This document shows positions 62,050 through 62,247 of a stretch of DNA of 64,000 nt, one piece after another. The stretch lies in the NCBI RefSeq assembly GCF_003334305.1, contig NZ_QOWS01000005.1; one strand, written 5' to 3'. A program made the translations under genes and the position numbers. Under the pieces are notes generated by a model. The model was given only the letters and a program-made list of their open reading frames with translations. It was not told where the DNA came from and did no database searches. The DNA comes from Escherichia coli. Lineage in GTDB: Bacteria; Pseudomonadota; Gammaproteobacteria; Enterobacterales; Enterobacteriaceae. The stretch's first letter is position 1; each line of letters starts with the position of its first letter.

Positions 62050-62148
62050 AACTCACTCCCTGTTCTTTATCGTTATATAAATGTTTATATATTGAATATT
62101 TAGCGCGCTAACAATAGAGGGAGTCTACCCATTTTGGGTTAAGAATTA

Positions 62149-62162
62149 TTAATCCATATCAA
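62149..62162. promoter_or_regulatory. candidate FNR-type site upstream of ynfE
   Basis: TTAAT-ccat-ATCAA, 9 of 10 matches to TTGAT-N4-ATCAA, about 100 bp upstream of the ynfE start. Confidence 0.35.
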
Positions 62163-62247
62163 TAGAAGGGTATGAGTAATAAGGTGGGATTATGTTGTAT
62201 GTTCAAATCGCCGGATGTGTCGTATCCGGCGTTCAGTCGATAATGTA

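Follow-up and report, generated by a model that had tools for sequence, protein, structure and literature searches.

Among the closest known systems to the ynfE promoter of Escherichia coli is promoter P1 of dmsABC, the paralogous operon for DMSO reductase. The two regions display a common order of elements: a hairpin of the upstream gene, an FNR site, a region of NarL heptamers, the transcription start, a ModE-type operator and the ATG. Both promoters are activated directly by FNR in the class II arrangement, with the site centred at -41.5 in dmsA and at -40.5 in ynfE (Myers 2013, PMC3688515). They differ in detail. In K-12, dmsA has TTGATACCGAACAA followed by TTCGATGTATACAAGCCTATATAGCGAA, 92 bp apart from centre to centre, compared with 73 bp in ynfE. 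The proximal FNR half-site of dmsA, AACAA, keeps the key C, whereas that of ynfE, ATTAA, has lost it. Conversely, the ModE-type site of ynfE is nearer to consensus (two mismatches) than that of dmsA (three mismatches). ModE control is documented for dmsABC.

Compared with class II FNR promoters in general, the ynfE promoter shows no substantial difference: it has a 14-bp site near -41.5, lacks a -35 element and is induced anaerobically. The score of its FNR site in a position weight matrix (PWM), 13.01, is moderate, perfect sites scoring about 16.7 (Myers 2013, PMC3688515). Like the operators of NarL and NarP, the ynfE promoter contains putative inverted heptamers spaced by 2 bp, flanked by the activator site on one side and the -10 hexamer on the other, a placement that suits repression by occlusion. 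The consensus of such 7-2-7 operators is TACYYMT-NN-AKRRGTA. The E. coli ynfE copy is degenerate in its distal heptamer, TAACCCA, whereas the copies of many genera have no mismatch or one. The ModE operators of modA and moaA have a TATAT-N7-TAYAT core in common with the site in the ynfE leader; the predicted ynfE site differs in lying downstream of the transcription start, at +33.5.

The DNA analysed here, which we call the window, is a stretch of 64,000 nucleotides of the E. coli chromosome, reversed relative to the K-12 orientation. Of 5426 complete E. coli genomes, 5384 matched an 801-base query around the ynfD-ynfE spacer, often at 100%, and the annotation of these matches identifies the genes as ynfC, ynfD and ynfE. 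Because ynfE is read from the minus strand, window coordinates increase in its upstream direction. Positions 62050-62247 are precisely the 198-nt spacer between ynfD and ynfE. This spacer differs from that of K-12 MG1655 at a few bases, none of them in the promoter core. The features are collected in Table 1.

Table 1. Genes and regulatory features in and around the ynfD-ynfE spacer (window coordinates; positions with a sign are relative to the implied ynfE transcription start).
Feature	Position	Strand	Remarks
ynfF	57139-59565	-	
ynfE CDS, 808 aa	59623..62049	-	first gene of ynfEFGH-dmsD; ORF intact; ATG at 62049
Shine-Dalgarno GGGAG	62056..62060	-	6 nt from ynfE ATG; GGAGTGAG nearly invariant among genera
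Predicted ModE-type operator, ATCGTTATATA-AATGTT-TATATATTGAA	62069..62096	.	centre +33.5, 33.5 nt before ATG
Perfect palindrome, 12 bp, TTAGCGCGCTAA	62100..62111	.	+5..+16 of ynfE transcript
Implied transcription start of ynfEp, A	62115	-	from centre 62155.5 and -40.5; leader 66 nt
Probable -10 hexamer, TAGACT	62122..62127	-	-12..-7; spacing from the -40.5 site position
NarL-type 7-2-7 inverted repeat, TAACCCA-AA-ATGGGTA (+ strand TACCCAT)	62126..62141	-	-26..-11, centre -18.5
FNR binding site	62149..62162	-	TTAATCCATATCAA on + strand, TTGATATGGATTAA on ynfE strand
Stem-loop after ynfD, CGCCGGAU-ACGACAC-AUCCGGCG	62209..62231	-	8-bp stem; starts 16 nt past ynfD stop
ynfD CDS, 101 aa, DUF1161	62248..62553	-	co-directional upstream gene; stop codon 62250-62248
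ynfC	62625-63371	+	

We are highly confident that this spacer contains the known promoter of ynfEFGH-dmsD, activated by FNR, repressed by NarL, preceded by a hairpin at the end of ynfD and probably subject to ModE control. The motif that had been flagged in the preliminary description is the already reported FNR site of this (selenate reductase) promoter, and there is nothing new in it. The ModE-type operator may be the sole new item. Neither this operator nor the NarL-type operator of the spacer figured in the preliminary description.

In the direction of transcription, the first element of the spacer is the hairpin, which had been said probably to end ynfD. It is unusually stable: its minimum free energy (MFE) is -13.7 kcal/mol (z = -3.75), and none of 200 shuffled sequences was equally stable. 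Position and stability fit the claim, but support for it is only partial: the tail, AUUUGAAC, has 3 U in 8 and no U tract, and a terminator scan that required at least 5 U of 8 called no intrinsic terminator here. Without a U tract, the E. coli hairpin is at best a weak terminator or a stabiliser of RNA ends. We think that ynfD transcripts end at this stem-loop, and that its role is probably that of a weak intrinsic terminator or 3'-end stabiliser.

Stem-loops recur at this position. Seven E. coli sequences differ in the loop but share invariant stems. Unrelated GC-rich hairpins occupy the same place in Citrobacter and Salmonella (CCCTCCG/CGGAGGG), in Leclercia and Silvania (CCCCCG/CGGGGG) and in Kosakonia (TCCCCCTG/CAGGGGGA), and canonical terminators with T runs are found there in Buttiauxella, Siccibacter and Franconibacter. 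Across genera, these hairpins are homologous in neither sequence nor register. The recurrence of unrelated hairpins at one position in several genera suggests that a stem-loop after ynfD has been repeatedly maintained. We found no comparable hairpin after ynfD in Enterobacter or Lelliottia, and so the hairpin is not essential to the arrangement.

It is quite possible, although it is not the reading we favour, that the hairpin is no terminator but a REP-like remnant or a protective 3' stem-loop, and that transcription of ynfD is ended by Rho or reads through. The absence of a U tract fits this proposal, and the hairpins of Citrobacter, Salmonella and Kosakonia also have no adjacent T run. Additionally, the arms GCCGGAT/ATCCGGC are like REP ends, with two mismatches each to the 14-nt half-consensus, and long palindromes that look REP-like by eye are present in other Escherichia species. 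However, the match to REP is at the level of chance (three matches compared with 4.2 expected), and the hairpin segment is single-copy in each genome. The distance of 16 nt from the stop codon is the usual one for a terminator, and more distant genera have canonical terminators at the same position. On the grounds of the chance-level match and the single copy, we rejected a REP identity for the hairpin.

The second element is the FNR site. The preliminary description had noted a pair of FNR half-sites matching 9 of 10 positions, placed it about 100 bp upstream of the ynfE start and proposed a class II anaerobic promoter. The motif and its position were confirmed, and published genome-wide data for K-12 support the class II reading. 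The sequence TTAATCCATATCAA has one mismatch to TTGATNNNNATCAA, so that nine of the ten positions of TTGAT-N4-ATCAA match, and the centre of the site, at 62155.5, lies 106.5 nt upstream of the ynfE ATG. The mismatch falls in the promoter-proximal half-site, ATTAA, where T replaces the consensus C at window base 62151 (site position 12). The 14-mer is identical in K-12. By itself, this degree of similarity is within chance for 64 kb: the window contains five matches to the FNR consensus with at most one mismatch compared with 2.8 expected, and 15 of 100 shuffled windows equal that. The remaining four matches are located inside coding sequence (rsxA, uidC, rstB and tqsA), and the site at 62149-62162 is thus the sole intergenic match in the window.

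The published evidence on this site is extensive. The PWM sites tabulated for FNR include TTGATATGGATTAA, assigned to ynfE and located at 1655980, with the score given above (Myers 2013, PMC3688515). In the current version of the K-12 genome the ynfE ATG is at 1658069 and the FNR site begins 113 nt upstream; given an offset of 1976 bp between the genome versions, the site in the window is exactly the one at 1655980. An FNR ChIP-seq peak with its summit at 1,656,036 covers the ynfE promoter, as does a ChIP-chip peak, and ynfEFGH-dmsD is placed in category 1, direct FNR activation, with one site at -40.5 (Myers 2013 Table 1, PMC3688515). Without oxygen, both sigma-70 occupancy and expression go up at ynfEFGH-dmsD. 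The ratio of RNA in the fnr mutant to that in the wild type is 0.027 for ynfE, 0.026 for ynfF/ynfG, 0.058 for ynfH and 0.19 for ynfI/dmsD (Myers 2013, PMC3688515). The published FNR dependence of the operon is about 37-fold. In reporter strains derived from E. coli Nissle, the ynfE promoter was active under anaerobic conditions and silent when nitrate or oxygen was present. The reporter paper credits FNR activation and NarL repression of this promoter to Xu, Busby and Browning 2009, and another published study employed the ynfE promoter as an FNR-dependent promoter. Published K-12 data are the source for the occupancy by FNR, the dependence on it and the position of -40.5; our analysis adds sequence identity and conservation.

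With the start position taken from the literature, the FNR site spans -47 to -34. The -40.5 value is second-hand, as the start sites in Myers 2013 were drawn from EcoCyc and Kim et al. (PMC3688515). It is compatible with the site centred near -41.5 that a class II promoter implies. Among the directly activated promoters with a known start, 19 of 23 fall in the class II range of -41.5 +/- 4, and the lone class I site is at -60.5 (Myers 2013, PMC3688515). The spacing from the FNR site points to TAGACT as the probable -10 hexamer, and its TA....T is retained in most genera of the alignment. A scan of 61900-62700 found no consensus sigma-70 promoter and no match to a -35 element, as expected of a class II promoter that depends on an activator.

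We consider it very improbable that FNR binds here in a geometry other than class II, with TATTGT (62116..62111) or another downstream hexamer serving as the -10 and FNR centred at about -51.5. TATTGT agrees with TATAAT at four of six positions, and its region (CATCATTAGC in other genera) is partially conserved. However, the EcoCyc and Kim et al. starts used in Myers 2013 (PMC3688515) give -40.5, and a centre at -51.5 would be both outside -41.5 +/- 4 and unlike the single class I site at -60.5. The counterpart of TATTGT in Kosakonia is CTTCAT, which lacks the A at position 2, whereas the upstream hexamer keeps TA....T.

The third element is the NarL-type repeat, which extends over the first two positions of the -10 hexamer. 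The E. coli copy has two mismatches to the 7-2-7 consensus, a degree of similarity that chance alone would explain in the window. Repression of ynfEFGH-dmsD by NarL and nitrate has been published; our literature search for a NarL 7-2-7 site at ynfE returned nothing relevant. We infer from its sequence and placement that NarL acts through the repeat at -26..-11. This proposal is supported by the rigid conservation of the FNR site, gap and repeat across genera.

For the cross-species comparison, relatives of YnfD were searched with one genome per species, which gave 80 loci. A ynfE homologue comes next after ynfD in 66 of them (66 enterobacterial species), making 67 loci with the window. An FNR-like site with at most two mismatches is present in 56 of the 67 loci, compared with 12.5% of shuffled controls; at most one mismatch is found in 36, compared with 0.9% of controls. 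The centre of the site is 100.5-108.5 nt from the ATG in 46 of the 56 loci. In 45 of these 56 loci, exactly 7 nt separate the FNR site from the best match to the NarL 7-2-7 consensus, and in eight more the distance is 8 nt. This match has no mismatch in 11 loci, one in 20 and two in 13, so that 31/56 have 0-1 and 44/56 have 0-2. These spacing and mismatch counts show a rigid conserved module, in which TTGAY-N4-ATTAA is separated by 7 nt from a 7-2-7 repeat that overlaps the -10 hexamer. The module is present in Escherichia, Citrobacter, Salmonella, Enterobacter, Lelliottia, Leclercia, Buttiauxella and Siccibacter, with different flanks, and is degenerate in Klebsiella and Cedecea. We also computed an ungapped conservation profile; its input sequences were chosen for carrying FNR and NarL motifs, and its high values within these motifs are therefore partly circular. 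The invariant non-consensus T of the FNR site escapes this bias.

That the 14-mer resembles the FNR consensus by accident and plays no regulatory role has next to no credibility, for although the count of matches in the window (five compared with 2.8 expected, equalled by 15/100 shuffles) would allow it, the published FNR ChIP-seq peak, the ~37-fold dependence and the PWM match on the same 14-mer already refute it, and the site is moreover conserved in position and sequence in at least eight genera with variable flanks and is the lone intergenic match in the window.

The departure of the site from consensus is itself conserved. The proximal half-site is ATTAA in 48 of the 56 loci and GTTAA or CTTAA in the other homologous sites. 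The lone ATCAA among the 56 loci is a non-homologous match elsewhere in its spacer, and the consensus C is missing from every homologous site. As the loci were selected for likeness to ATCAA, the conserved non-consensus T is not an artefact of selection. These counts may point to selection for a deliberately weak FNR half-site, and such a half-site may tune the affinity for FNR.

Within E. coli, the 14-mer is identical in all seven aligned sequences, which were chosen to include variants; the same sequences vary in the spacer, in the 7-2-7 repeat and in the -10 hexamer. A 32-mer around the FNR site has at most one mismatch in every E. coli genome matched. Individual strains and species show other changes at this locus. 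In the annotation of E. coli 2012EL-2448, ynfE is a frameshifted pseudogene (1358-3783 of the retrieved locus L089), and the promoter region has 100% identity to the window despite this. E. coli MIN6 (NZ_CP069692.1) carries IS1A between ynfD and ynfE (2597-3294 of the retrieved locus L007). Its match to the core promoter ends after 44 of 63 bases, which indicates that the insertion disrupts the promoter near the -10 hexamer. In E. coli GmF046 (NZ_CM183658.1, match H54), a gene of the DmsC/YnfH family adjoins the 3' region of ynfD, which suggests a deletion of ynfEFG together with their promoter. In E. albertii, Escherichia sp. E1V33 and E. whittamii (loci L009, L010 and L012), the ynfD-ynfE spacer is 45-52 nt longer, a long palindrome, REP-like to the eye, replaces the short hairpin of E. 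coli, and the FNR/NarL/ModE module downstream is unaltered.

The remaining elements are in the ynfE leader. The ATTAGC core of the 12-bp palindrome near its 5' end is partially conserved in many genera of the alignment. Even with a permissive threshold, no RNA family of Rfam matched 61500-63000. We also considered a riboswitch or attenuator in the leader and rejected it, as the fold is ordinary (z = +0.60).

Further downstream, the leader matches the E. coli ModE consensus, ATCGNTATATA-N6-TATATANCGAT (PMC545781), at 18 of 20 positions, and a match with at most three mismatches occurred in none of 100 shuffles of the window. The TATAT-N7-TAYAT core has a single match in the 64-kb window, the one in the ynfE leader, and in 27 kb of K-12 it was found only at the sites upstream of modA and moaA. 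With the full 28-mer consensus and at most three mismatches the modA and moaA operators were not recovered, and the 28-mer is thus an idealised form. Across the 67 loci, the best ModE score is bimodal, with 2-5 mismatches in 25 loci and at least seven in 42. In Escherichia, Citrobacter and Salmonella the good matches keep a constant distance of 33.5 nt from the ATG; no such match is present in Enterobacter, Klebsiella, Kosakonia or Leclercia.

Based on the consensus match, its conservation and the matching layout of dmsA, we predict that ModE binds the ynfE leader at +33.5. We found no report of a link between ModE and ynfE in the part of the literature that was searched. The larger proposal, that the leader contains a functional and unreported ModE operator and that ynfEFGH-dmsD responds to molybdate like dmsABC, is a tentative one that we think could well be wrong. 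Elsewhere in the window, ATCGTTATCTCCTTTGCTATCCAACGAT at 39141-39168 has four mismatches to the ModE consensus, with perfect outer arms and disrupted TATAT cores. This match, which may be due to chance, coincides with the start of folM (dihydromonapterin reductase) as annotated.

We have put these elements together in a model of the spacer. In the first part, under anaerobiosis, dimeric [4Fe-4S]-FNR binds TTGATATGGATTAA (62162..62149), whose centre is at -40.5 relative to a start near 62115. This is a class II position, and from it FNR recruits RNA polymerase to a promoter with no -35 and a weak -10 (TAGACT). The second part of the model addresses nitrate, with which phospho-NarL represses the operon. 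We propose that it would bind the conserved repeat at -26..-11, which separates the FNR site from the -10, and so keep RNA polymerase out. The stem-loop after ynfD may shield the FNR-dependent promoter from read-through. The final part is a prediction from sequence: by analogy with the paralogous dmsA, the ModE-type operator in the leader probably confers molybdate control.

The FNR site governs anaerobic expression of ynfEFGH-dmsD, which encodes a selenate/tellurate reductase and DmsD, the chaperone required for DMSO reductase. The ynfE promoter already serves as a biosensor for anaerobic, low-nitrate conditions in gut E. coli. The cross-species footprint provides a precise map of this promoter: FNR site, 7-nt gap, NarL 7-2-7 repeat and -10 hexamer. 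The ModE operator, if it is indeed unreported, would mean that molybdate control reaches a second member of this enzyme family; if true, it would explain how the synthesis of the molybdoenzyme is coupled to the supply of molybdenum.

The range of the window also includes ynfK, another FNR-activated gene (Myers 2013, PMC3688515). A second FNR ChIP peak from the same study is located upstream of ynfK (bioD in the annotation of locus L089), at about 52800-52900 of the window.
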